In this document: positions 1 to 12,749 of the stretch, in pieces
Position numbering within the stretch: the first letter of the stretch is position 1
How the letters are laid out: every line of letters begins with the position of its first letter
Origin: Candidatus Latescibacterota bacterium
GTDB taxonomy: Bacteria; Latescibacterota; UBA2968; GCA-2709665
Length of the DNA: 64,000 bases
Assembly (NCBI GenBank): GCA_965203805.1
Contig: OZ241917.1
Location: forward strand, 3,232,001-3,296,000
Direction of reading: 5' to 3'
Notes under the pieces: model-generated
Told to the model about the DNA's origin: nothing
What the model saw: the letters and a program-made list of their open reading frames with translations, nothing else
Databases searched by the model: none
Position numbers and translations under genes: made by a program

Positions 1-229
1 ATAGCAGGAAGGGCAGCGTCATCCGGCTTCGCTCCCGAGCGATCGCGTCCATCCCCATCAGCACCGCGCCGAAGAGGCCGACCGCGTGACTGACTACATT
101 CACATCGGCAGGAGCAAATTCCCATTGGGAGAAAACCAGGCCGACAATCATCGCCAGGCCGGCGCATGCGGCGACTTTGTAGGCGGATTCGCGGGCTTCC
201 TTCCAGAACAGAGCACCGATCGGGTTCAT
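1..229 (-). CDS. ABC-2 type transporter permease, N-terminal part (runs off window)
   Basis: Manual translation MNPIGALFWKEARE...GMDAIARERSRMTLPFLL. The ATG at 229 overlaps the TGA of the ABC ATPase. Confidence 0.75.
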   Translation of the reverse strand, partial: MNPIGALFWKEARESAYKVAACAGLAMIVGLVFSQWEFAPADVNVVSHAVGLFGAVLMGMDAIARERSRMTLPFLL

Positions 230-1125
230 CGCTGTCCTCCTGATTCCGGATGGACATGGGCGACGAAGGCCTCCTCGAGGCCGACGTCCATCACGTCCTC
301 GATATGCCCGCCCTGCGCCTGGATGCGCGCGGCCTGTTCCTCGCCGTAGTCCACCACGGTCAGCAGCCGCCGCGGTCCCTCCCCCTGCACCTGGCGCAGT
401 CCTTCGATGTCCGTCATTCGATCCTCGCCTTCCTGCAGCCGTACTGTGACGCGCTTGACCGACCCTTTCACGTCGTCCACCGTGCCGTCGGTCACCAGGC
501 GTCCCTTTTCGATAATGGCCACGCGGTCGGCCACGCGCTCCACCTCGTGGACCAGGTGCGATGAAAGGAAAACCGTGCGGCCTTCCTCCTGGATGAGACC
601 GATAATGCTCTCGAGAAAGTCGCGACGCACCACCACGTCCAGCCCCGAGGCCGGCTCGTCCAGGACCAGCAGACGCGGCTCGTGGCCAAGCGCAAGGGTG
701 AGCGCCAGCTGGGCGTTCATCCCTCGCGACAGGTGCTTGACCTTCTGCTCCGGATCCAGGCCGAACCGCTCGATCAGCCCGTTTACACTGTCATGGTTCC
801 AGGTCTCGTAGAACTGGCCGGTGAACCAGACGAGTTCCCGTACTTTCATCCATCCGTACATCACCCGGTTTTCGGCCACGTACCCCACCTGCCGCCGCAG
901 CGCCAGCGTATCCTGCTCGGGATCCAGCCCCAGGACCTCCACCCTTCCGGCGGTGGGCTGCAGCAGGTTCATGAGAATCTGGATGGTCGTGGTCTTGCCC
1001 GCGCCATTGCGGCCGAGGAAACCGCAAACCGTCCCCGCGGGCACCTCCAGCTGCAGATCGTCCACGGCCGTGAGTTTGCCGAAGCGGTGGGTCAAGCCCT
1101 CGATTGCGATCGCTGTATCGCTCAT
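226..1125 (-). CDS. ABC transporter ATP-binding protein (YtrB-like)
   Basis: Walker A GRNGAGKTT, signature LSRGM, LVLDEP, SSH. GGGAG RBS precedes ATG 1125; alternative start at 1158. Confidence 0.93.
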   Translation of the reverse strand: MSDTAIAIEGLTHRFGKLTAVDDLQLEVPAGTVCGFLGRNGAGKTTTIQILMNLLQPTAGRVEVLGLDPEQDTLALRRQVGYVAENRVMYGWMKVRELVWFTGQFYETWNHDSVNGLIERFGLDPEQKVKHLSRGMNAQLALTLALGHEPRLLVLDEPASGLDVVVRRDFLESIIGLIQEEGRTVFLSSHLVHEVERVADRVAIIEKGRLVTDGTVDDVKGSVKRVTVRLQEGEDRMTDIEGLRQVQGEGPRRLLTVVDYGEEQAARIQAQGGHIEDVMDVGLEEAFVAHVHPESGGQR

Positions 1126-1150
1126 ATCGACTCCCTGTGTTCTGTCCCGG

Positions 1151-1540
1151 TCACTCATCGTTCCGGAAACGGTCGAGCCGTTCCCGGATCACCTGTTCCA
1201 TCTCGTCAGGAGACAGTTCCAGCTCGACGCCCTGCACCAGCGCCCTGTCGAGCAACTCCCTTACGATTTCCAGCTTTTCCTCTCGGGAAATGGTGACGTC
1301 CCGCTCGGCGACGTACGTGCCCATCCCCCGCTTCTTGTAGATGAACCCCTCGCGCTCCAGTTCAAGATAGGCGCGCGCAACGGTATTCGGGTTGATCAGG
1401 TACTGACCGGCGAGGTCCCTCACGGAGGGCAACTCTTCGTGCGGCTTGAGCACCCCCCGCGCCATCTGATACCTGATCTGTTCCATCATTTGCAGGTAGA
1501 TGGGCACCCCGTTGGCCGAATCTATGCGCAAGGGCAGCAT
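1151..1540 (-). CDS. GntR family transcriptional regulator (YtrA subfamily)
   Basis: PIYLQ...LPSVRDLA...INPNTVARAY..LEREG...RGMGTYV; short protein heading an ABC operon. Confidence 0.93.
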   Translation of the reverse strand: MLPLRIDSANGVPIYLQMMEQIRYQMARGVLKPHEELPSVRDLAGQYLINPNTVARAYLELEREGFIYKKRGMGTYVAERDVTISREEKLEIVRELLDRALVQGVELELSPDEMEQVIRERLDRFRNDE

Positions 1541-1560
1541 GGCTGCGTTCCTGTGCCAAG

Positions 1561-1598
1561 AGTATTACTGTATGGGTGAACCGATACAGTGATATACT
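1561..1598. promoter_or_regulatory. Palindromic operator for the YtrA-type regulator (autoregulation)
   Basis: AGTATTACTGTAT-gggtgaaccg-ATACAGTGATATACT imperfect inverted repeat just upstream of the GntR start. Confidence 0.65.
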
Positions 1599-1670
1599 AA
1601 CAAAACTGACTCGAAAATGCAAGCGGTTTTTTCGATCAGGGAAAAAAGCGGTGCGGCGAACGTCACAGAA

Positions 1671-1790
1671 GGGCGCCCCTGCAAGACCAGGGGAAGCGAT
1701 GGCAGGGTGAAGGCGTATGGAGGCGCGGTAAACAGCGGGCGGGAAGCGGGTCTGAAGGTGGGGCGGACATTCCTGTCTGCCCTCTTTTCG
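1671..1790 (+). repeat. ~110-bp dispersed repeat with REP-like ends, copy 1
   Basis: CGCCCCT.CAAGACCAGGGGAAGCGATGGCA...TGAAGGTGGGGC.GACATTCCT recurs at ~2993-3096. Confidence 0.8.
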
Positions 1791-1948
1791 TCGGCCTTCC
1801 GGGACGCACTGAGAATAAAGACAGTCGCCGGCTTTTTGGTACCGCAATTTTCGAATGTGGCAGATGCGACGAGTTGTTGCATACCCGGACATGGACTTTG
1901 TAGTCTTCGTCTTTTGGATGTGAGCAGACAGGAATGTCTGCTCCACCC
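1757..1948. repeat. Inverted REP pair (REPIN-like)
   Basis: GGTGGGGCGGACATTCCTGTCTGCCC at 1757 and inverted GAGCAGACAGGAATGTCTGCTCCACC at ~1922-1947. Confidence 0.65.
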
Positions 1949-2502
1949 TGAAACCTGGGTTCTCAGCATGACGTGGTGGATGCGCGCGGGAATTGCCCAC
2001 ACCCAAGTCGCAGGAGATGCTTCGTCAAGTTCCTGGATTTTCGGGGGACCGGCACACATTTTGCAGCCATTAACACAAGGCGCGACTACGAATTTCGGTT
2101 TCGCTGCAGAATCTCGGAACGAAGTAATTGCGCTCGGGAAGCCTCACGAAAGACACCGTTATGCGCCGCATACTGAAGTTGATTTTTTAGCCTTTATCAT
2201 TGTTGCAGTTCCCATTGACAGCCCGCGATTTTTGTTGTTATTTTAATCCATTGGCGCAAGACGGGGGAGAAGGACGTAGTCATATTGGGCGCCTGGTCTG
2301 TCACTGTCGCCTACTTCACAATACCAGCCCGTTGAAAAAGTCCATCCGGGCTACGTCCGGCCCTTGTGACCGAAATACGGCGTTGCGCTCCCTCCCCGAA
2401 TCCAGGGATTCGCGTCGGTCACGCGCCTTGTCTTCGGCCACAATGACTCGGCCTCGCCTGCAGAGCGACTTTTCCATCGGACTGTTAGGAGCAATTGACA
2501 TC

Positions 2503-2667
2503 ATGGGTATGTTCGTTGGGACGATGACTGAATTTGTGGCCAGATGGTACAAAAACAGGGTTCTCGAAAATGCGCGCGAAGAGATCCGGGAACAGGTTCG
2601 TGAGGAAGTCCTTCAGGAACTTCGGGAGGGCAGGCAGGACAAGACAGATGCGGGTGAAGTAAAGTGA
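2503..2667 (+). CDS. Small charged-helix hypothetical protein, possibly the remnant of a longer gene
   Basis: AGGAG upstream; MGMFVGTMTEFVARWYKNRVLENAREEIREQVREE... Confidence 0.4.
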   Translation: MGMFVGTMTEFVARWYKNRVLENAREEIREQVREEVLQELREGRQDKTDAGEVK

Positions 2668-2759
2668 ACATCCCGTTCCAATAAACCTGCGCAACTGTAA
2701 CCTCCGGACTGTGTTGATATTGAATTTCACGTCGGCTTGTCGTTCCGTTAAATTACAAT

Positions 2760-2837
2760 GTGCCAAGCATATTGCCCCCCGGAGGATCGTATTCTCCGGC
2801 CGACGCTCCTGTCCGCGGCAGGGGCGTTTCTTTTTTT
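2760..2837 (+). ncRNA. Putative two-hairpin small RNA, orphan copy
   Basis: Near-identical to 6448-6522. TTCACG-17-TAAATT promoter (2726-2754), hairpins CCGGAG/CTCCGG and ACGCTCCTGTC/GGCAGGGGCGT, then a T-tract. Confidence 0.6.
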
Positions 2838-2992
2838 CAATGAGACGGTTTTCGTGCGATTGGCAACCCCCCACCGCATCAGCCGTCGCCGGTCCATCGA
2901 CCCTTCGACATTTCGACACCCTTCGACAAGCTCAGGGAGCGAGGTCGATGCAGGCAGCTCAGGTATCGCCTCCGACAGCCGGGCACCCACAA

Positions 2993-3096
2993 GGGACGCC
3001 CCTACAAGACCAGGGGAAGCGATGGCAAGGTGGAGGCGCATGGAGACGTACGGGAAAAGGGCGGGAAGGAGGTTTGAAGGTGGGGCAGACATTCCT
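2993..3096 (+). repeat. ~110-bp dispersed repeat, copy 2
   Basis: Similar to 1671-1790. The overlapping GGGCACCCACAAGGGACGCCCCTAC is a REP-like palindrome. Confidence 0.8.
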
Positions 3097-3190
3097 TGGA
3101 ATTAACCAGAAAACTCTTGCACCCCTTAAAGTCGAAATATTATATTTCAATTGTCCACATACAGGCAACGTGCGATAAGGAAATATCCCC

Positions 3191-3502
3191 ATGGCAAACG
3201 ACAAGATGACCCATGACGAAATTATCCAGCGCATGCTGAAATTGGACATCGACGTTATGATTCTCCGTGTAGTCCTCCTACAGGTAATTCGTTCAATTGG
3301 GAAAGATCGTCCCGACCTAATTCAGCAGCTCCTCGTTACAACCGATCCGATAAAAGCCTCAGAAAAGACATTCCCAATAAAGGTCGCTCTTAGAAACGTC
3401 ATTCCGAAGGTCGTGCCGCTGCCAGTCTTTAATGAAATCTTCGATGACGCCTTTAGCGAAATCCACAACAACATAATCGCAATCGCCAACCTGGACCGCT
3501 AA
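3191..3502 (+). CDS. Hypothetical protein
   Basis: 103-aa ORF with AAGGA RBS in the AT-richer islet; no motif recognised. Confidence 0.65.
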   Translation: MANDKMTHDEIIQRMLKLDIDVMILRVVLLQVIRSIGKDRPDLIQQLLVTTDPIKASEKTFPIKVALRNVIPKVVPLPVFNEIFDDAFSEIHNNIIAIANLDR

Positions 3503-3643
3503 AGCGCTCATAATCAAACTCACCCACTTGCCCCGGTCTAAAGGAAAATCGCGCGCAAATGTGACTCTTGGTTAGTACTCCGTATTCAAGTGGCACGGGC
3601 GTCGTAGTATTGGATTTTCTTTGGGTTGATGATGCCGCAAACC

Positions 3644-4849
3644 CTAGAACAAATCCCGTTGGATCGACAGAATTCTGTCCCGAGATTTCGATTCCTCAGT
3701 ACCCCGGATTGCCTCCGCCGATGGACCATCCGATGAATCGAATACATCCTCATCTTGTTCGTCGTACAATCCACAATATTTCTCTTGCGGATTTGGATCG
3801 TAGAGCAATTCGATTTGGTGTTTCGACAACATCCGGAGCTCCCTGACGTCATTGATCAATATTCCCGCCTCCTGCTTCGTCATTACGGGAAATCCGTAGT
3901 TTTCGTTCTTGTATTTCAGAGAACGGCCCGAAGCCGTTCTGTTGGTTATGAATTCCAGGTGCTTTGCCAGCCTTTCGTCAATATACTGATTGGACGATGC
4001 CACAATGTCGTTTGTTCTCTCAGCTACCGCATCTGCGAAATTAGGGTCGATTTCATAGCCTACGCTGTTTCTGCAAGAAGCCATCGCTGCCGCCATTGAT
4101 GTGCCGGTCCCCAGGAACGGATCCAAGACCAGATCACCCTTCGCGGAGAACATATTAATTAGCCTGTACGCAAGCTCAAAAGGAAAGGCCGCACTTCTTT
4201 TGCGGAGATTCTCGTTTTTCAAGTCCTGCTTGGCTCCCTTCATATCCATCCATACATCGGAGAACCAGATATTCCGTTCTTCCCAAAAAAAAGCGCTCCT
4301 CTTTCGGCGTAGTTTTTCTGCCTGACTTTCGAATTTCCTCTTCCCACCTTTTCTGAAGACAAGGATGAATTCATGCTCTAATGTTACGTAAGCCCCTGGC
4401 GGCAACATTCCACTTCCCATAAACTTGTTTGGCGCATTTGTCTGCTTTCTCCAAAGAATCTCCGGCAACGCCTGAAATCCCGTCTTCAAGCAGTGGCTCG
4501 ATATTCTTGAATGGTTGGGATAAAGTTTGAAATCTCCGTCAATCGTTCTTGTGGCATCTCCCACGTTAATGCAGGCAATTCCTCCTGGCCTTAAAATTCT
4601 ATAGACCTCCTCCCATACGCCGTCGAGAAGCTGATTCATCAACTCAAATGCAAGATTGCCGTTTTTGTCCCACAATGCCTCTCCTATTGCGGGATTTTGT
4701 TTTGTAAACAACCCATCCCACATCTCAATCATGGGATACGGCGGGGAAGTAATCATCAGATCTACAGAATCGTCCCTAAGTTCATTCATACCATTTGAAT
4801 CTGCGTAGAATATCGTGTGCGTTGTTTTTATCTCACCCATCTTTCCCAA
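3644..4849 (-). CDS. Site-specific DNA methyltransferase (N4-C/N6-A, beta class)
   Basis: Catalytic TSPPY precedes SAM-binding DPFLGTGTS. Start may be ATG 4840. Confidence 0.93.
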   Translation of the reverse strand: MGKMGEIKTTHTIFYADSNGMNELRDDSVDLMITSPPYPMIEMWDGLFTKQNPAIGEALWDKNGNLAFELMNQLLDGVWEEVYRILRPGGIACINVGDATRTIDGDFKLYPNHSRISSHCLKTGFQALPEILWRKQTNAPNKFMGSGMLPPGAYVTLEHEFILVFRKGGKRKFESQAEKLRRKRSAFFWEERNIWFSDVWMDMKGAKQDLKNENLRKRSAAFPFELAYRLINMFSAKGDLVLDPFLGTGTSMAAAMASCRNSVGYEIDPNFADAVAERTNDIVASSNQYIDERLAKHLEFITNRTASGRSLKYKNENYGFPVMTKQEAGILINDVRELRMLSKHQIELLYDPNPQEKYCGLYDEQDEDVFDSSDGPSAEAIRGTEESKSRDRILSIQRDLF

Positions 4850-4944
4850 TCATCCTCCAGTCTCGTCCCGAACGAAGTTTCCCATATCCAGCTTATTTTC
4901 AAATCGATAATTAATCTACCGTACCGTACTTTATGTCGATCAGG

Positions 4945-5544
4945 TCAAAAAAGCTTCGGCGGATCTTCATCTGGGATTTCAATTGTGATCCCGTCGCCCT
5001 TCTTTTCATAATACACAATGGTTACGTAAATTGCATCGGCCAAACTTGGCTTTGATTTAAAAGTACTTGGCTTAATTGAGTACGGGCGATCGCCGACAAA
5101 TCCATCTATTCCTTGGCTTTCTTCATACGTTTCGGCCAGACGATAATCGCACCCCTTCAACTCAGCCAGTCTCTTCAGAATCGCTTCTTGAAACCTAAGG
5201 CCCACAAAAGTCTTCACGAGCACCAGATCCTCGACCCAACTCTTAACAAGCTCTCGATCGATAACCGGGAATGCCGTCTGTAATTTTTCGAGCATCGACG
5301 TAATTCGATTGGTCGCCTGATCAATTGCGTCGGGGTTTTTCTCAAGATACCACTGAACCCACTCTTCGTATGTTTTGCCCGGAAACTGCTGAATCAGTTC
5401 GCTCATCTGCCCCACTACCTTTGGTCTGGTCCCCTGCGCGTTCTGATTAGCCAGATTCATTATTTGAGTTGTGTATTTGGGAAACTCCGAAATTGGCGCT
5501 TCCAAGTACTCCTGAATCTCTTCATTCTTAAGCTTTAATTTCAC
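4945..5544 (-). CDS. Type II restriction endonuclease, MjaI family
   Basis: FPKYTTQIMNLANQNAQGTRPKVVGQMSELI...ESQGIDG...SIKP; adjacent to the MTase. Confidence 0.85.
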   Translation of the reverse strand: MKLKLKNEEIQEYLEAPISEFPKYTTQIMNLANQNAQGTRPKVVGQMSELIQQFPGKTYEEWVQWYLEKNPDAIDQATNRITSMLEKLQTAFPVIDRELVKSWVEDLVLVKTFVGLRFQEAILKRLAELKGCDYRLAETYEESQGIDGFVGDRPYSIKPSTFKSKPSLADAIYVTIVYYEKKGDGITIEIPDEDPPKLF

Positions 5545-5733
5545 TGCAATACCTCGGAAAGATATTGGCGTATAGTGACTTACTCAGACGTTTCCCTTGG
5601 AAGGTTGAACACTTGTGGCCAGCACCGATGTTATTGCCTGTTGTGTGTCCAAACCAAGCGTCAACTGTCGTTACTTTGCAGCATTTTCAATGAATTGTAG
5701 GGAATTCACACCAAATAAATCGTCGTCACGTTT

Positions 5734-6399
5734 TTATGGTTTAGTTTTCCATCTATCCGGACAAGATAGTTCATAGCCATCCGGTTTGGTTATCTTTTCT
5801 GGTAACATACTAATACTTAGTTTCTTTCTGCCAATCACAAATGATCCAGAAGCCATTGCGCTCAATGCTCCCGAAATTCTCGAAGGGGGAAAGGCGATTA
5901 CAATACGCTTTCGATACAATTCGATCACCTTTTTGACGGGTGGAACGAGGTCGCCGTCGCCCGAAATTACGATTGCCGCATCGTACCTGTCTTGTTGAGC
6001 ATCGACTAACATTTCGACAGCAATTGCTACGTCGGTCCTTTTCTCTTCCGAATCATCCCATTCGAACTTGCAGGACGGACAGGACACCTTCTTACGTACA
6101 TAATGTCCCCAGTTCTTACGTACATAATGTCCCCAGTAGAATTTGACGCCGCCCATTGCATTTAGGGCTTCGAGAAAGGTGTTTTGTCTCTTCCATTTGC
6201 CACGGTCTCTATTGTTCTGAGAAACACGCGACGTGAAGTACTTCACGCCTACCAATGATTGGTGCTCACGGAGTAGATTATGAGACAGAAGCCTTAAATC
6301 CAGCCAGAGAAAGCGATTCTTCCACTTTGACTTTAAACCATAATAGAGATTGAATCCGTCTATGTAGACGATTACACGTTCCTTGGAAGTCTGTTTCAT
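5734..6399 (-). CDS. NYN domain (LabA/DUF88, PIN-like) ribonuclease
   Basis: YIDGFNLY, EEKRTDVAIA, ISGDGDLVP acidic motifs and a CPSC insert. Confidence 0.9.
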   Translation of the reverse strand: MKQTSKERVIVYIDGFNLYYGLKSKWKNRFLWLDLRLLSHNLLREHQSLVGVKYFTSRVSQNNRDRGKWKRQNTFLEALNAMGGVKFYWGHYVRKNWGHYVRKKVSCPSCKFEWDDSEEKRTDVAIAVEMLVDAQQDRYDAAIVISGDGDLVPPVKKVIELYRKRIVIAFPPSRISGALSAMASGSFVIGRKKLSISMLPEKITKPDGYELSCPDRWKTKP

Positions 6400-6412
6400 C
6401 CGGAATTTTCGC

Positions 6413-6441
6413 TTGACACACATATTATGAGTTGTTAAATT
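6413..6441 (+). promoter_or_regulatory. Sigma70-type promoter for the sRNA
   Basis: TTGACA-17 bp-TAAATT with an extended TG. Confidence 0.65.
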
Positions 6442-6447
6442 ACGAAT

Positions 6448-6522
6448 GTGCTAAGCATATTGCCCCCCGGAGGATAGCATTCTCCGGCCGACGCTCCTGT
6501 CCGCGACAGGAGCGTTTCTTTT
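6448..6522 (+). ncRNA. Putative two-hairpin small RNA, antisense to the NYN leader
   Basis: Promoter upstream, hairpin CCGGAG..CTCCGG, perfect 11-bp hairpin ACGCTCCTGTC/GACAGGAGCGT followed by TTCTTTT; second copy at 2760. Confidence 0.65.
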
Positions 6523-6535
6523 GTATACAACATCA

Positions 6536-6564
6536 AGCATAACATATAGTTATCGGCCAGTCAA
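6536..6564 (-). promoter_or_regulatory. Sigma70-type promoter for the NYN gene
   Basis: TTGACT-17 bp-TATGCT on the minus strand. Confidence 0.6.
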
Positions 6565-6726
6565 GGGATTAATCGAAGCGCAGGTGGCGCGCCAGTGAGG
6601 GTGGTTCGCGACCATTCGGATAATTACCCGGCGATGCATGTTTCGGCATGCGCGTCCATCACTGGCTGATCGAAGGACACTCGACCGATTCCCGTAGTGT
6701 AGGCAGCCTCATAGGAGCAGGATGTC

Positions 6727-7404
6727 TTGTTGACCTCGGAAGAATGGATGGTTCTTGGCCTTTCTCTGCGCGTGGGTCTGGTCTGCGTGCTGTTGAGCCT
6801 GCCCGCGGCGGTGATCCTGGGCTGGGTGCTCGCCAGGCGCGAATTCCGGGGCAAAGTGCTGCTCGACGGGCTTTGTCACCTGCCCCTGGTGCTGCCCCCC
6901 GTGGTGACCGGCTACGTGCTGCTGCTGTTGTTCAGCCGTCGAGGTGTTCTGGGGGGCTTTCTGGAACCGACGCTGGGACTCCAGGTGGCGTTTACCTGGA
7001 AAGGGGCGGCGCTGGCTTCGGCCGTGGTCGCATTTCCCCTGGCGCTTCGCGCCATCCGGCTGGCCATTGAGGCCGTAGACCCCAGGTTGGAACACGCGGC
7101 CCGCACATTGGGCGCCGGTCGGCTCAGAGTCTTCCTGACCGTAACGCTGCGGCTGGCCGCGCCCGGGCTGCTGGCGGGCGCAATGCTGGCATTCGCGCGA
7201 AGCCTGGGAGAGTTCGGCGCCACCATCACCTTTGTGTCGAATATCGCCGGGGAGACGCGGACGCTGCCCCTGGCGATATTCACGTACATCAACCGGCCCG
7301 GCGGGGACGCGGCCGTCGCCCGTCTGGCGATTCTGTCCGTCATCCTGTCCTTTGCGGCGCTGGTGGCCGGCGAGGTGGCGGCCCGGCGAATGAGGAGAAA
7401 CTGA
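6727..7404 (+). CDS. modB: Molybdate ABC transporter permease
   Basis: LPLVLPPVVTGY, FARSLGEFGAT, TRTLPLAI. Confidence 0.93.
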   Translation: MLTSEEWMVLGLSLRVGLVCVLLSLPAAVILGWVLARREFRGKVLLDGLCHLPLVLPPVVTGYVLLLLFSRRGVLGGFLEPTLGLQVAFTWKGAALASAVVAFPLALRAIRLAIEAVDPRLEHAARTLGAGRLRVFLTVTLRLAAPGLLAGAMLAFARSLGEFGATITFVSNIAGETRTLPLAIFTYINRPGGDAAVARLAILSVILSFAALVAGEVAARRMRRN

Positions 7405-7405
7405 C

Positions 7406-8485
7406 GTGCTCTCCATCCGCGTGAAACGGTCGCTGCCGGGATTTACCCTCGAGGCGGCGGTCGAGTGCCCCTATCCGGTGACCGCGATCTTCGGGCCTTC
7501 CGGCGCCGGAAAGACCACGCTGCTGGACCTCGTGGCGGGCCTGCTCGCGCCGGACGACGGGGAGGTCCGGCTGAACGACCGCGTGCTCTTCTCGTCCGAA
7601 ACGGGCGTGAATCTGCCGCCTGAACGGCGCCGCGTGGGGTACGTGTTTCAGGAAGACCTGCTGTTCCCCCATCTGACCGTCATGGAAAATCTGCGGTACG
7701 GTTACGACCTCCTGCCTCCGGATTCGCGCCGGTTCGAGGTGGGACCCGTGGTGGATCTCATGGGACTGTCCGGGCTGCTCGACCGGCGTCCGGCGCGTCT
7801 GTCGGGCGGCGAGCGGCAGCGGGTGGCGCTGGGGCGGGCGATTCTGGCCTCGCCGGAACTGCTCCTGATGGACGAACCCCTGGCTTCCCTGGATCAGGAA
7901 CTCAAAGACCGAATTATCCCCTACTTGCGGCACATCAGGTCGGACCTGGGCATCCCGATTCTCTACGTGAGCCATTCGGTCGCCGAGATCCTGGAGTTGA
8001 CCGGACAGGTAATCGTCCTGAAAGCCGGACGCGTGATCGCGCACGGGGACTTTTTTCACGTTGTCCATCATCCCGAGGTGCTGCCCCTGGCCGAGGCGCA
8101 CGGGTTCGAGAACGTGCTGCCGGTGGAGGTGGTGGCGCAGGACGGGGCCCGAAGAGGCTGCCGCGTGCGTTTCGGAAATCAGGAGCTTCGGGTGCCCCCA
8201 TGCGACAGACCCGTTGGAAGCCGGATCTTCATCAGCATTCGGGCAAACGACATCATCCTGAGCAGGAAACAGCCGGAGGGGTTGAGCATTCGCAACGCGA
8301 TGCGGGGCCGGATCCTCGACATGCAGGACGTGGACGGCAAACAACTGGTCTACGTGGACGTGGGGAAACGGCTGGCCGTGGAGGTGACCCTGGAAGCGCT
8401 GGAAGAGTTGGGCCTGGAGGTCGGCGACCCGGTGATGTGCCTGGTGAAAGCCCACTCGATTCGAATCGGCCCGAACGCGGACTGA
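7406..8485 (+). CDS. modC: Molybdate ABC transporter ATP-binding protein with TOBE domain
   Basis: GPSGAGKTT, LSGGERQRVA, SIRN C-terminal motif. Confidence 0.93.
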   Translation: MLSIRVKRSLPGFTLEAAVECPYPVTAIFGPSGAGKTTLLDLVAGLLAPDDGEVRLNDRVLFSSETGVNLPPERRRVGYVFQEDLLFPHLTVMENLRYGYDLLPPDSRRFEVGPVVDLMGLSGLLDRRPARLSGGERQRVALGRAILASPELLLMDEPLASLDQELKDRIIPYLRHIRSDLGIPILYVSHSVAEILELTGQVIVLKAGRVIAHGDFFHVVHHPEVLPLAEAHGFENVLPVEVVAQDGARRGCRVRFGNQELRVPPCDRPVGSRIFISIRANDIILSRKQPEGLSIRNAMRGRILDMQDVDGKQLVYVDVGKRLAVEVTLEALEELGLEVGDPVMCLVKAHSIRIGPNAD

Positions 8486-8519
8486 AGGCGTCGGGTGACG
8501 TGGTCCGATCCGATGCCCG

Positions 8520-9494
8520 TCATCCTTCCTCGCCTTCGTAGAGCAGCCTGAGAAGGGCAAGGAAGAGCCGGTCGCGCCGGTCGCGCGCCCGGTCGATGGA
8601 TTCGGGCGTGTACTCGTGGAAACCGCGGCCGGTCTTGACGCCGTAGTGCCCCGCTTCAACCAGTTTCCCGATGTTGCGGGGAAGTTCGGTGTCCGAACGG
8701 ATTTCGGAAACAAGAATCCTGTAAACGAGCGCCGAGACGTCGAGTCCTCCGAAGTCCCGCACGGTCAGGGGTCCGATGGCGGCCAGGCGGAATCCGACGC
8801 TGGCCCGGACCGCCCGGTCGATATCCTCGGGCTCGGCGACGCCCCTGTCGAGCAGGTCCCAGACTTCGCGCTGCATGGCGACCTGGATGCGGTTGACCAG
8901 GAAGCCCGGGAGTTCCTTCTTGAGGGGCACCGGCACCTTGCCGATACGTTCCAGGACGTTTACGGCGGTCCGTACCGTCGACCCGGTCGTGCGCTCTCCG
9001 GGAACGACTTCCACGAGCGGTACCAGATGGGGCGGATTGAACCAGTGGGTGACCACGGCCCGACCGGGATGCGAAAGGTCCCGTGCGATGTCGGTCATGG
9101 GAAAGGAGGACGTATTGCTGGCCAGAATGGTCTCACGCGAAACGACGGCTTCGATACGGGCGAAGCATTCCCGCTTGACGTCCAGGTCCTCGCGAATGGC
9201 TTCCGTAACGAAACCGGCGGCTTCCACGGCCTCGCGTTCGCTGTCGAAAACGGCGATGCGTCCGAGGGTTTCCCCGACCGTTTCCGGCGTGTCCATCCCC
9301 GCCTGAATGCGTTGCCGCAGGTTGGTTTCTATCCGGCGGTACAAGGATTCACGGGCCGCGGGGGACTCGTCGTAGCATCGCACCGGGTGTCCCGCCGCCG
9401 CGAATGCCTGCGCGATCCCGTGGCCCATCGTGCCCAGGCCGATAACGGCTATGGTCTGGAATTCCAATTCGCTTTGCAAGTGTCCCGTCCCCAA
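8520..9494 (-). CDS. 3-hydroxyacyl-CoA dehydrogenase family protein
   Basis: GLGTMGHGIA, ASNTSS, HWFNPPHLVPLVE, PGFLVNR. Confidence 0.9.
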   Translation of the reverse strand: MGTGHLQSELEFQTIAVIGLGTMGHGIAQAFAAAGHPVRCYDESPAARESLYRRIETNLRQRIQAGMDTPETVGETLGRIAVFDSEREAVEAAGFVTEAIREDLDVKRECFARIEAVVSRETILASNTSSFPMTDIARDLSHPGRAVVTHWFNPPHLVPLVEVVPGERTTGSTVRTAVNVLERIGKVPVPLKKELPGFLVNRIQVAMQREVWDLLDRGVAEPEDIDRAVRASVGFRLAAIGPLTVRDFGGLDVSALVYRILVSEIRSDTELPRNIGKLVEAGHYGVKTGRGFHEYTPESIDRARDRRDRLFLALLRLLYEGEEG

Positions 9495-9544
9495 AATACC
9501 TCACCGTTCGGTCGCCGATTCATCGCGTCTCGCTGCGTTGCTTG

Positions 9545-10660
9545 CACTGCCGGTGCTGAGCCTGTCGAAGCAAGCTTGCCGAAGTGCCTTGTCGAAGCGC
9601 CCTCGCTTACCGATCGTGGCAGGTCGCCATTCGGCGGACAAAACCACTTTGGAGCTAACCTACTGGGGGACAAGGGCTTTATCTCCCCCGCCAACTCTTA
9701 TTTTCTCTTCGTCCTTTTCAAAAAGCGGTGAGACGTAAGACGTGAGACGGGAGAGATTGCCTGCCCCGTGAGATTTCAGCTCAGACCGAAGGCATTGTGG
9801 AGGAGCGATTCGGGCAAGGATTTCTTCTACCGTCTACCGTTTCACCTCTCCCCGAATTTGAAGAAGCGTGCCGCTCGGCGCGGGGCCGGTTTTTCCGTGA
9901 ACCACCTCAGTGGCGTAAGTGGAAATTGGTTGCCCTGTCACCGTACCAGCCCTGCCGGAACTATGTTGCTAGACGGATTTGCACGGAAAAAACCCCCACT
10001 CCGCCACCGTTCGCTTGACTAAACTGCGCGAGGTTTGATGCATTTGCGATCTTGACGATTATGCGCTTGAGAACCCCCGACACCCCCACCAACCTACCCC
10101 CTATCCCCCTTCCCGAAGGAAGGGGGAACGGAGATCCTATCAGGGAGTCCTGGTTGTCTCCCCCTCTCCCCCCGGGAGAGGGGGTTGGGGGGAGAGGTCT
10201 GCGGCGTTGGGGGTGGTTCGCTCTCGGCTGATTGCAGTTGCTTTCCTTTGTGTCTTCGTGTCTTTGTGTGAGCAGATTTTCGTTTTTGATCTTGGCTATC
10301 GGTCGAGAGCTAACGTCTGCCCTCATCATCCAGGCACCCATCGGTTTACAAAGGTATATCCTGACCGGAGAACGACCAGAGCAGAGCGCGCTGATCCGTC
10401 CAGCAACGCGGTTCGATGTGCCTCCGAGGGTGTCGGGGCAAAGGATCCTGTGCATCCTGTGAGCGTGTTCGCGCTATGCATTTCGCAGGCCCCACGCCCA
10501 GTGGCGACTTTTGGTTCCTTTTGGTCGCTTTAAAAGGAACACGCCGTAGGCAGGGAATTTGGGGAGATGTGGATGTTGAATTTGATTCTTGTTTTTGATT
10601 TTCGCTCTTGCTTCAAGCTGACCGCTGATGGCTGACTGCTGAAAGCTGCTTTTCTCCTTC
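9545..10660 (+). repeat. Mosaic intergenic repeat locus 1 (modules A, C, REP arms, B)
   Basis: Modules shared with loci 2-7. Confidence 0.9.
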
Positions 10661-10693
10661 CGAATTCAGGCAACTTGTTTCCGGGAAAGAACA

Positions 10694-11434
10694 CTAGATT
10701 GTCTTGCCGCCGTCCACCACCAGAACCTGCCCGGTTACCAATTCGTTCACGACCAGGCCCAGAATCGCATTCGCGATATCTTCGGGTTCCGCGACGCGCT
10801 GGAGGGGCGTGGCTTCGCGATTCACGCGAACGAATTCCTCCCAACCCTTTACCCAGCGTGTGTTGACGATGCCGGGGGCCACGGCGTTTGCCCGGATGCG
10901 GGGCGCCTGGCTGACGGCCAGGGATTTGGTGAGGGAGATCAGCGCCGCCTTGGAGGCGCAATACGCGATGGAGCTGCCCTGCCCGCAGGTGCCGGCGATC
11001 GATGCTACGCTCACGATCTGGCCCCCTGCTTCGGGCATTCTGGCGATCGCCGCCCTGGCGCAGTAGAAAGCGCCTTTCACGTTGACGTCAAAGACGGGAT
11101 CCCAGGCGTCGTCGGTGAGGGCCTCGAGGTCGGCCAACGGCACGAAGACGGTGGTTCCCGCGTTGTTGACCAGGATGTCCAGCCGGCCCAGTTCTCCAAC
11201 CACACGGTCCACCATTTCGCGGACGGCGCTCTCGACCGACACGTCGGTGCGGATTGCGATCGAGTTTCGGCCAAGCGCACGGACATCGGCCGCCGTGGCT
11301 TCGGCTTCCTTCCTGGAACGCGAATAGTTGACGGCCACGTCGGCCCCTTCCGAAGCGAGCAGCAGGGAGGTCGCTCTTCCGATTCCCGTGCCGCCGCCGG
11401 TCACGAGCGTGACTTTTCCGTCCAAACGGCCCAT
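10694..11434 (-). CDS. SDR family oxidoreductase
   Basis: TGGGTGIG, NNAG, YCASK. Confidence 0.93.
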   Translation of the reverse strand: MGRLDGKVTLVTGGGTGIGRATSLLLASEGADVAVNYSRSRKEAEATAADVRALGRNSIAIRTDVSVESAVREMVDRVVGELGRLDILVNNAGTTVFVPLADLEALTDDAWDPVFDVNVKGAFYCARAAIARMPEAGGQIVSVASIAGTCGQGSSIAYCASKAALISLTKSLAVSQAPRIRANAVAPGIVNTRWVKGWEEFVRVNREATPLQRVAEPEDIANAILGLVVNELVTGQVLVVDGGKTI

Positions 11435-11477
11435 ATAGGATCCTTTCGATTTGGTGTATGGGAATTGTTTTCAAGAT

Positions 11478-12749
11478 CTACGGATCTGCAAACGGGATGG
11501 CGACGACGTCGCGGATGTCTGCTGAGTCGGCAAGCACCATCAGCAAACGATCCACGCCGAGGGCGATGCCGCCGGCCGGCGGCATGCCGGCTTCGAGGGC
11601 GCCCAGGAATTGCTCGTCGATCGGATAAGCCGGTCGACCGCTGTCCCGTCGCTGCGCCGCTTCTTCTTCCAGCCGGGCCCTCTGTTCGGCGGGGTCGTTC
11701 AGTTCCGTAAAAGCGTTGGCGAGTTCCACGCCCGAAACATAGAGTTCGAACCGCTCCGCGATGCCGGGCGCATTCTGTTTCAATCTGGCAAGCGCCGCCA
11801 TCTCCGCGGGGTAATCCACGAGGAAGGTTGGGCGTCCCGCGCCGAGGCGTTTTTCCACGGCATCCAGAAACACCTTGAAATAAGCGGTCTCAAACCCATC
11901 GCCGGGAACGACCGACAGGTGGCCGTTCCGGCGGGCTTCCCGGACGAACGCGTCGAGATTCTCCGAGGGATCGGCGGACACACCGGCGTACTTTGCAAAT
12001 GCTTCCCGCACGCTCAGGCGTTGCCACGGGGGGGTGAAGTCGACGGTTCGACCCCGGTACGCGATGGATGATTTCCCGGTGAGTTCACGTACCATGCCGT
12101 GAATCAGATTCTCCGTGTCACCCATGATGGTGGTGTAGTCGGCGTAGGCCCTGTACCATTCGAGAAGCGTGAATTCGGGGCTGTGCATGGGGCCGGGCGG
12201 GTCCTGGCGGAACGACTTGCAAATCTGGAAGATGCGTTCGTACCCGGCCGCCAGGAGGCGCTTCATCGCGTATTCGGGTGAGGTCGGCAGATAATACTGT
12301 TTCGCGTGCCCGTTGGCGCGGTAGTGGGTTTCGAAGGCGTCCAGATGGGGTTCCATACCCGGGCAGCGAACGAGAAGCGGCGTCTCGACTTCCAGGAATC
12401 CCGCGTCCTCGAAAAAACGCCTGACGTACGACAGAACCCAGGAGCGCATCCGCAGGATCCGCGATGCGGGTCCTGACTCTGGTGGGCGCAGGGCCGGCGC
12501 CAGAACCCGGTGGCTTCGGACGCGAAATGCAGGAGGCCGCCAGATGCCCCGAACCTCCACCACGTGTCCCGGCCGAAGCGTTCCCGGCGCCTCGAGGGTC
12601 ACCTCGCCCGACTCGTCAACCAGCCGTGGATTGTCCGCCCCCGCGCCGGCAGCGACCCGACCGGCCAGAATCGCTTCGTCACCCGGCGCCAGGTCCGAGA
12701 CGCGATGGGTACGGGCGCACCCCGCGGGATAGGTGTTGGATTCAGACAT
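11478..12749 (-). CDS. epmA: EF-P lysine aminoacylase EpmA/GenX with N-terminal extension
   Basis: TSPEYAMKRLL, HSPEFTLLEWY, ERFELY..GVELANAF, GIALGVDRL. Start inferred at MSESN. Confidence 0.85.
   Translation of the reverse strand: MSESNTYPAGCARTHRVSDLAPGDEAILAGRVAAGAGADNPRLVDESGEVTLEAPGTLRPGHVVEVRGIWRPPAFRVRSHRVLAPALRPPESGPASRILRMRSWVLSYVRRFFEDAGFLEVETPLLVRCPGMEPHLDAFETHYRANGHAKQYYLPTSPEYAMKRLLAAGYERIFQICKSFRQDPPGPMHSPEFTLLEWYRAYADYTTIMGDTENLIHGMVRELTGKSSIAYRGRTVDFTPPWQRLSVREAFAKYAGVSADPSENLDAFVREARRNGHLSVVPGDGFETAYFKVFLDAVEKRLGAGRPTFLVDYPAEMAALARLKQNAPGIAERFELYVSGVELANAFTELNDPAEQRARLEEEAAQRRDSGRPAYPIDEQFLGALEAGMPPAGGIALGVDRLLMVLADSADIRDVVAIPFADP

Follow-up and report, generated by a model that had tools for sequence, protein, structure and literature searches.

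The question raised by this locus was what two nearly identical short repeats do at the ends of a small island of restriction and nuclease genes, and how one of them relates to the NYN-domain ribonuclease gene that it abuts. The island lies in a 64,000-nt stretch of contig OZ241917.1 (assembly GCA_965203805.1), the whole of which is called the window here; coordinates are counted from its first letter. A preliminary description of the window had proposed a structured antisense small RNA (sRNA) paired with the NYN gene and an orphan second copy. Each repeat is predicted here to encode a small, structured RNA that is transcribed from a strong promoter of its own and ends at its own terminator. 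The RNA is almost certainly a dedicated partner of one subfamily of stand-alone NYN proteins, HEC-09 (Hma-embedded candidate 9, where Hma stands for helicase-methylase-ATPase), and on comparative grounds its most likely role is to restrain the nuclease within a system directed against phages.

A repeat search gave two copies of 78 nt each with 94% identity, at 2757-2834 (copy A) and 6445-6522 (copy B), the same two that had been described before. In the pairwise alignment the similarity began at the -10 box TAAATT (2749-2754 and 6436-6441) and ended with the T-run; the flanks were unrelated. Of the five differences between the copies, one falls in the loop of the 5' hairpin, two fall in that of the middle hairpin, and two are A/G changes in the terminator that turn A-U pairs into G-U pairs in copy A; the loop and stem changes reported earlier were seen both in the alignment and in the fold. 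The + strand of both copies folded into three hairpins with energies of -37.5 and -36.0 kcal/mol (z-scores -6.1 and -4.1) and the - strand folded worse (z-scores -3.4 and -0.9). A search of window positions 1-12000 with the Rfam 15 covariance models, on both strands and with permissive filters, gave no match at E values up to 1; on that search the RNA family is absent from Rfam 15, in line with the preliminary description, which had not recognised it. A high-copy repeat was ruled out since the 5.87-Mb genome holds only three copies of the element, the two of the window and a diverged third one. A tRNA or tmRNA origin was ruled out as well, ARAGORN having found neither in the window.

Two covariance models were built, R1 from 20 copies and R2 from 85 aligned matches. 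The 85-sequence alignment had been fitted to the model, which favours structure, and in it 91.6% of the cells were paired compared to 70.1% in shuffles, with 493 double-change cells against 147 in shuffles. Compensatory changes were present in 8 of 9 P2 pairs and 9 of 11 terminator pairs. When the partner was slid by 1-3 columns as a control, pairing reached 47% at most, and these slid controls and an independent RNAalifold run on the genus set agreed with structural selection. G-U pairs were frequent (for example 61 of 85 at the terminator base), and because they would be C-A on the other strand the RNA is placed on the + strand. The covariation, the G-U pairs and the RNAalifold result all uphold the earlier claim of selection on a + strand RNA fold. 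In addition, several unpaired nucleotides were kept across phyla, namely the C-rich tail ACCCC, the loop AUAGYAU, the linker CCGAC and GUUUCUUUU after the terminator hairpin. A cis-antisense RNA would not need such nucleotides, while recognition by a conserved protein would. The RNA would be approximately 75 nt long in the window and approximately 60 nt in most other lineages.

The RNA promoter was of the sigma-70 type, with a score of at least 8.5 in 69 of 83 copies, and in 52 of these 69 the -10 box ended 11-21 nt before P2. In 18 copies a TAnnTTTG motif was found 9-16 nt before P2, and all but one of these had it at 13-16 nt. We take this motif to be the Bacteroidota promoter element; the 18 loci appeared, by reading and not by counting, to be from Bacteroidota and allied metagenome-assembled genomes (MAGs). 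Because the promoter sits at a fixed distance from P2, the transcript would start approximately 5-10 nt before P2 in most phyla. The 5' hairpin P1, which covaried within the genus and was 74% paired in the wider alignment, seems to be a genus-specific extension, and elsewhere that stretch seems to be largely promoter and not transcript. The conserved 5' segment and first hairpin of the preliminary description held within the genus, but seem to be absent from the transcript in most phyla. A consensus scan returned both convergent promoters and both terminator hairpins that had been noted before (Table 1). Promoter-like sites as a class were not above chance in the region, with 7 found against 5.0 ± 2.0 in shuffles.

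The protein beside copy B matched Pfam family PF01936 with 50.9 bits (cut-off 24.2) and no other Pfam family, in agreement with its first assignment as NYN. Its match to the PADLOC profile HEC-09 had an E value of 9.6e-77 and covered profile positions 2-203 of 203. The AlphaFold2 (AF2) model had a pLDDT (predicted local distance difference test) of 90.9; a fold search with it returned NYN/LabA structures, the best matches being 2qip (E 6.5e-12) and the NYN domain of MARF1 (5yaa, 6fdl). Across 65 homologues D14, D148 and D150 were invariant and D123 nearly invariant. From sequence and model, the window protein is predicted to be an intact NYN nuclease of PIN-like fold that keeps its putative active-site aspartates. 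The start codon first proposed, ATG at 6423, gave way to the likelier ATG at 6399 (MKQTSKERVIVYIDG), which is aligned with the homologues and lies 45 nt from the 5' end of the RNA model. In a library whose clusters were drawn at 50% identity, 191 cluster representatives were of HEC-09 type at E ≤ 1e-30. The window gene was not embedded in an Hma system; within 12 kb of it were found a type II DNA methyltransferase gene, an MjaI-type restriction endonuclease gene, a 103-aa open reading frame (ORF), GntR/ABC genes and modBC. The NYN gene also has a perfect 24-nt tandem duplication at 6089-6136, giving the in-frame 8-residue repeat WGHYVRKN/WGHYVRKK, which is absent from all aligned homologues and coincides with the one loop (residues 92-99) that the model predicts with low confidence.

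Linkage of the RNA to NYN genes was determined from both directions. A scan with the NYN alignment, using one genome per species, identified 568 relatives among the first 600 pattern matches, and the best 80 loci, from many phyla and with NYN homologues of 38-50% identity, were kept. R1 found the RNA in 71 of these 80 loci at E ≤ 1e-3, with 77 matches in all, and R2 added six loci to give 77 of 80; two of the three loci without the RNA had less than 160 nt of upstream sequence as they were cut at the locus edge. Cultured carriers that came to light were Thermus oshimai JL-2 (on plasmid pTHEOS01), Winogradskyella marincola, Flavobacterium arsenatis, Chryseobacterium kimseyorum, Arcticibacter pallidicorallinus and Singulisphaera sp. 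PoT. Among the 77 R1 matches, 66 were divergent from the NYN gene with a median of 37.5 nt between the 5' end of the model and the NYN start codon, six were convergent just past the NYN stop codon, and four were upstream on the NYN strand (L084, L133, L144 and, on inspection, L112). In L114 the match lies at 1379-1456 on the minus strand, ahead of the NYN match at 1501; the script left it unclassified, and from its coordinates it reads as divergent. In the four same-strand loci the order was promoter, RNA and terminator, and the NYN start came approximately 10-30 nt further on (in L133, 20 nt), which leaves no room for a separate promoter, so NYN would be expressed there only by read-through past the terminator. 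Tandem sets of the RNA in L107 (four copies), L109 and L113 consisted of whole units and not of short repeats. Those of L107, from a Dehalococcoidia MAG, lie at 2157-2541, convergent and just downstream of NYN, each copy with a TTGACA promoter and a terminator.

The reverse test searched with a degenerate DNA pattern that was drawn from the RNA core and took no account of NYN; it gave more than 119 stretches, from which 80 loci were kept. A NYN gene was within 400 nt in 53 loci (52 divergent, 1 convergent), 19 loci had none and 8 were too near an edge, so that the RNA was NYN-adjacent in 53 of the 72 testable loci and orphan in 19. One of the 19 had an IS1595-like gene between the RNA and NYN, and about ten of the 53 adjacent NYN matches were partial. 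Within the genus, all 8 NYN genes of the subfamily (at least 46% identity) were divergent from and abutting an RNA copy, at three loci, while no such RNA was found with filters off at 10 loci of other NYN-domain genes in these genomes. Likewise, more distant viral NYN loci (≤36% identity) had the RNA in 0 of 77, the weak matches being terminator-like, and small enterobacterial and Leptospira plasmids with a distant NYN gene gave no match with R1 or R2. With default filters neither model found the RNA in mycobacteriophage prophiGD43A-1 or in the faecal phage scaffold MT836335, whose NYN is approximately 36-42% identical and so not clearly distant. Overall, the link to NYN was borne out, and it is specific to a single subfamily. 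The preliminary description had reckoned with a high-copy motif unlinked to NYN genes as the outcome against it; what was found were the three copies in the genome and the NYN adjacency of the reverse test. As a side observation on the plasmids, L272 and L273 are small E. coli plasmids of 3.4-5 kb in which a NYN gene of 28-33% identity is one of three to seven annotated genes, and very small NYN plasmids also occur in Klebsiella, Salmonella and Serratia.

The pattern was also present in 14 stretches of viral contigs. All 14 held the full RNA and only one had NYN beside it (13 of 14 without); the neighbours were terminase, endolysin, head-tail adaptor, DNA ligase and homing-endonuclease genes. 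Fisher's exact test of NYN adjacency in phage against cellular loci gave p = 4e-6, or 5e-4 with some nine sequence groups counted once; both values overstate the significance, as the loci are related. The grouping of the 14 stretches is the author's reading. Both the orphan and the phage-borne copies retained the whole RNA core. A blastn search of two phage copies, which are very short queries, against GenBank phage records gave no match. A phage pseudo-ToxI RNA has been described from which the phage gains by carrying the antidote (PMC3475682).

Within the genus the element was found by blastn in 13 of 14 other genomes. R1 had 27 matches in the genus, including three in the window genome, and three weaker ones in a sister genus. 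The genus copies occupied three loci (A, B and C). At locus A, flanked by GntR and modBC genes, five genomes had a single RNA, and G012 had two tandem RNAs of left type and right type, 273 bp from start to start, with no island between them (L011/L031). An island with NYN was present there in the window genome (G000), G007 and G008, and a partial island without NYN in G011. G013, which was listed with locus A, had a partial island (methyltransferase and a restriction endonuclease fragment, no NYN) beside an RNA copy, and no modB was detected downstream. Locus B, between glpK and ilvD, had a NYN paralogue of 54% identity in four genomes and none in three; two of the four paralogues were damaged, that of G003 by a TAG stop and that of G007 by a change of its N-terminus. 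Locus C was a variable region with higBA-like genes, with NYN present in G010 and an IS1595-like transposase gene in its place in the window genome (L053, G000:C1:4536742-4546818). There a 316-aa ORF lies at positions 5169-6119 of L053 beside the third sRNA copy; the names IS1595-family and higB/higA-like were read by eye.

Since G012 has tandem copies without an island, the insertion site of the island would have been flanked by pre-existing or surviving RNA genes. The simplest account of the loci compared is that old RNA genes stay at fixed sites while NYN and restriction-modification (R-M) genes come and go next to them. This turnover may have been aided by recombination between copies of the RNA gene, and the direct repeats look like an insertion scar, though the island has no integrase. 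A leader or riboswitch of modBC was ruled out, as the downstream gene varies (modB, ilvD on the opposite strand, others) while NYN recurs upstream. In two loci without NYN, L015 (G011) and L019 (G013), the sequence approximately 20-60 nt upstream of the sRNA, directly ahead of its -10 box, resembled the 5' part of a tRNA by eye; ARAGORN found no tRNA there, nor in loci L061 and L062 with their tRNA-like upstream flank.

HEC-09 (PADLOC PDLC04163) is a single-gene candidate in Payne et al. (bioRxiv 10.1101/2024.01.29.577857), and none of the words non-coding, ncRNA, noncoding and antisense appears in the main text of that preprint. Compared with that text, the RNA partner is new. The window NYN resembles HEC-09 in matching its profile end to end and in being a stand-alone, MARF1-like nuclease with conserved aspartates among defence genes; it differs in adjoining a type II R-M system instead of lying inside Hma. 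Searches on NYN with RNA antitoxins, toxin-antitoxin (TA) systems of type III, sRNA in defence and HEC-09, which left supplements outside, gave no description of an RNA partner, and the main text of Weinberg et al. 2017 (PMC5737381; its motif lists are in supplements) has no NYN, DUF88, LabA or PIN.

Among the closest known systems are the type III families ToxIN, CptIN and TenpIN, which also combine an endoribonuclease-type protein with a small non-coding RNA gene (PMC3401426, PMC5086642). Further likenesses, predicted from sequence on the present side, are an RNA made in excess from a strong promoter, defence contexts and phages with the RNA alone (pseudo-ToxI, PMC3475682). The promoter-RNA-terminator-toxin order of toxIN was found in only 4 of 77 matches, and the window locus is divergent. 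The protein here has the NYN/PIN-like fold and not the ToxN/AbiQ fold. Type III antitoxin repeats are 34-40 nt long, whereas the RNA here is a single unit of 60-80 nt with two or three hairpins and its own terminator and not a toxin-cut repeat array. The NYN-RNA family lies outside all three type III families, and it looks like a variation on the RNA-antitoxin theme. A type III assignment can hold unrelated toxins, since AvcID, a deaminase toxin inhibited by an sRNA, is filed there (PMC10511110); AvcID is similar in joining a non-ToxN enzyme toxin to a small RNA, and its enzyme and RNA seem to be unrelated to those here.

The reading preferred here is that the RNA is the antitoxin of a two-part TA or abortive-infection module with NYN, to which a probability of about 0.55 is given. 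Negative control of NYN by the RNA, in whatever form, is probable, and direct binding of the RNA to the protein is conceivable at somewhat less than even odds. Comparison of sequences established the RNA family, the strand, fold and promoter of the RNA, the link with NYN and the phage-borne orphans; from these we infer the toxicity of NYN and its inhibition and binding by the RNA, the binding from the conserved unpaired motifs and the layouts in particular. Abundant RNA would keep the NYN ribonuclease silent, most probably through protein binding as in type III systems, and where the genes are divergent, transcription of the two towards each other and their antisense overlap would tighten the control further. 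Such added cis control is expected from the position of the RNA promoter across the start of NYN; in divergent loci, collision of promoters or antisense pairing very likely plays a part. Should the RNA run short, for example when a phage shuts down transcription in its host, the nuclease would be released, and a phage that has only the RNA would bring in a decoy antidote. Copy A would be an orphan antitoxin gene, and its description as an orphan stands beside the orphan state of about a quarter of the loci elsewhere. The cross-phylum unpaired motifs, the same-strand loci, the cellular orphans and the phage copies argue that the RNA acts on the nuclease and not only on its gene. Toxin-like decay is counted in favour as well, as seen in the NYN stop in G003, the altered N-terminus in G007, the partial NYN matches and the 19 orphan RNAs. 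The catalytic aspartates are intact. Several findings weigh on the other side. According to the main text of Payne et al., HEC-09 protected against none of the phages tried, and the NYN fold and the single structured RNA unit differ from known type III systems. Overlap or collision of transcription units is forced in 66 of 77 matches, and cis effects alone might suffice. The RNA outlasts NYN at conserved chromosomal sites in the genus (for example upstream of modB in five genomes and at 3 of 7 testable glpK-ilvD loci) and could therefore have a role of its own. Finally, the phage copies also seem to act as terminators at gene ends and may serve another purpose.

Placed second is a purely cis-acting antisense RNA of the type I or SymR-SymE kind, which would pair with the NYN mRNA leader or act through promoter collision without binding protein; this is considered unlikely. 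In SymE-SymR, a type I system with an enzyme-like toxin, a cis-encoded small RNA lies opposite the 5' end of the nuclease-like toxin gene, and the predominance of the divergent layout at short distance is of that form. With the RNA promoter over the NYN start, transcription of NYN has to initiate either within the RNA gene or past it, and at the six convergent matches a 3' overlap is possible. In the window a promoter-like site beyond the terminator (6564-6536) also fits; if used, it would give a NYN leader antisense to the whole sRNA. The claim that the sRNA is fully antisense to the leader rests on this candidate promoter, whose flank is conserved in five genomes of this locus type, two of them without NYN, and not at the other two locus types. 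NYN promoters were not consistently placeable by hexamer score elsewhere (15 of 67 loci with a site of at least 9, at scattered positions), and the duplex of the RNA with its cognate start region was -24.9 kcal/mol against -23.1 for non-cognate pairs (p = 0.08), which is no clear difference and one that short gaps may inflate. Antisense overlap is impossible in the four loci with the RNA upstream on the NYN strand, and pure antisense control cannot hold there. Antisense pairing alone is insufficient because same-strand, downstream, orphan and phage copies occur, which sets the family apart from SymE-SymR, as does its phylum-wide structure with unpaired motifs. Cis pairing is perfect by construction, yet unpaired nucleotides are kept across phyla, and orphan and phage copies keep the whole core. 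The partner also is a soluble 221-aa protein of nuclease fold and not the small hydrophobic peptide of type I systems. The TA or defence reading of the preliminary description is consistent with the phage-borne orphans and the HEC-09 identity. Ranked third, and rather improbable, is an RNA that serves NYN as a cofactor, scaffold, guide or obligatory substrate. The tight, subfamily-specific linkage and the resemblance of the conserved loop and linker to a protein-recognition surface are what such a positive partner would show, and the lack of phenotype of HEC-09 in the published screen, as reported in its main text, fits too. Its variable 5' part could be read as a guide region, but in most phyla this is mostly promoter and in this genus a covarying hairpin, and little room for a guide is left as only the short C-rich tail remains 5' of P2. 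Orphan and phage RNAs without NYN are easier to explain as antidotes, and the strong RNA promoter with NYN downstream of the terminator fits an excess of inhibitor. It is very improbable that the repeats are structural DNA only, that is, a site of attachment or recombination, or a transcription terminator, of which insertion of the R-M/NYN island produced a second copy. As direct repeats they bracket a low-GC island, island-free relatives have one copy at the same site and phage copies sit at gene ends like terminators; against this, an integrase is missing from the island, a promoter forms part of each copy, and the G-U strand asymmetry and the P2 covariation are features of RNA. Moreover, G008 has the island with one copy, G012 has two copies without it, and in many phyla the element adjoins NYN without flanking repeats.

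HEC-09-type NYN genes are common and occur in defence islands, and their annotation is that of single genes without an assigned role. If they have an obligate partner RNA, this would change how they are annotated, cloned and tested, as constructs with and without the approximately 130-nt upstream region would be different systems. With its strong covariation, its spread over many phyla and its place outside Rfam, the RNA family is a subject for how NYN/PIN-like nucleases recognise RNA hairpins, and through the phage orphans it can be tested directly whether RNA mimicry serves as counter-defence in systems other than ToxIN. As a tentative proposal, the systems may form a fourth, phylum-spanning class of protein-RNA TA or abortive-infection systems in which one structured sRNA binds and silences a NYN ribonuclease and phages carry decoys. 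If this is true, the RNAs would be a new and widespread structured family whose protein-recognition hairpin consists of the loop AUAGYAU and the CCGAC linker, and the inertness of HEC-09 in the published screen, as given in its main text, could be explained.

Table 1. Features of the sRNA-NYN locus and its island, in window coordinates.
Feature	Position	Strand	Evidence or remark
Copy A promoter, weak -35 TTCACG	2726..2731	+	
Copy A promoter, -10 TAAATT	2749..2754	+	
sRNA copy A, predicted orphan without adjoining NYN	2757..2835	+	Covariance-model match 101.7 bits; fold; repeat
Copy A P2, loop AUCGUAU		+	
Copy A terminator hairpin	2802..2828	+	Terminator scan; two G-U pairs
103-aa ORF, left island end	3191..3502	+	90% identical copy travels with the island in genome G007
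N4/N6 DNA methyltransferase gene, type II R-M partner, island neighbour	3644..4849	-	PF01555 E 3.7e-41; PADLOC MTase_II E 2.6e-154
MjaI-type type II restriction endonuclease gene, island neighbour	4945..5544	-	PF09568 E 4.4e-62; PADLOC REase_II
NYN nuclease gene, 221 aa, HEC-09 type	5734..6399	-	PF01936; PADLOC HEC-09; divergent from copy B
Copy B promoter TTGACA-17-TAAATT, TG-extended -10	6413..6441	+	10 of 12 consensus; overlaps NYN translation start region (opposite strand)
sRNA copy B, NYN-linked	6445..6523	+	Covariance-model match 103.2 bits; fold; terminator scan; covariation
Copy B P1	6445..6461	+	Genus-specific
Copy B C-rich linker	6462..6466	+	
Copy B P2, loop AUAGCAU	6467..6487	+	
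Copy B linker CC		+	Between P2 and P3
Copy B terminator hairpin P3	6490..6516	+	Terminator scan
Copy B U-run	to 6523	+	
Candidate NYN promoter TTGACT-17-TATGCT, beyond the sRNA terminator	6536..6564	-	9 of 12 consensus

The island between the two copies has a GC content of 44-48%, against 63-69% outside, and holds four genes: the 103-aa ORF, which had no match in Pfam, PADLOC or NCBIfam, the N4/N6 methyltransferase, the MjaI-type restriction enzyme and the 221-aa NYN protein. The restriction enzyme and the methyltransferase are treated as predicted neighbours in the island, and no membership in the NYN-RNA unit is claimed for them. Finally, the gene-poor stretch at the left of the island has an element of approximately 100 nt in two direct copies (1671-1774 and 2994-3096; 84-89% identical), with a part of it inverted at 1924-1956 and a few further partial matches genome-wide.

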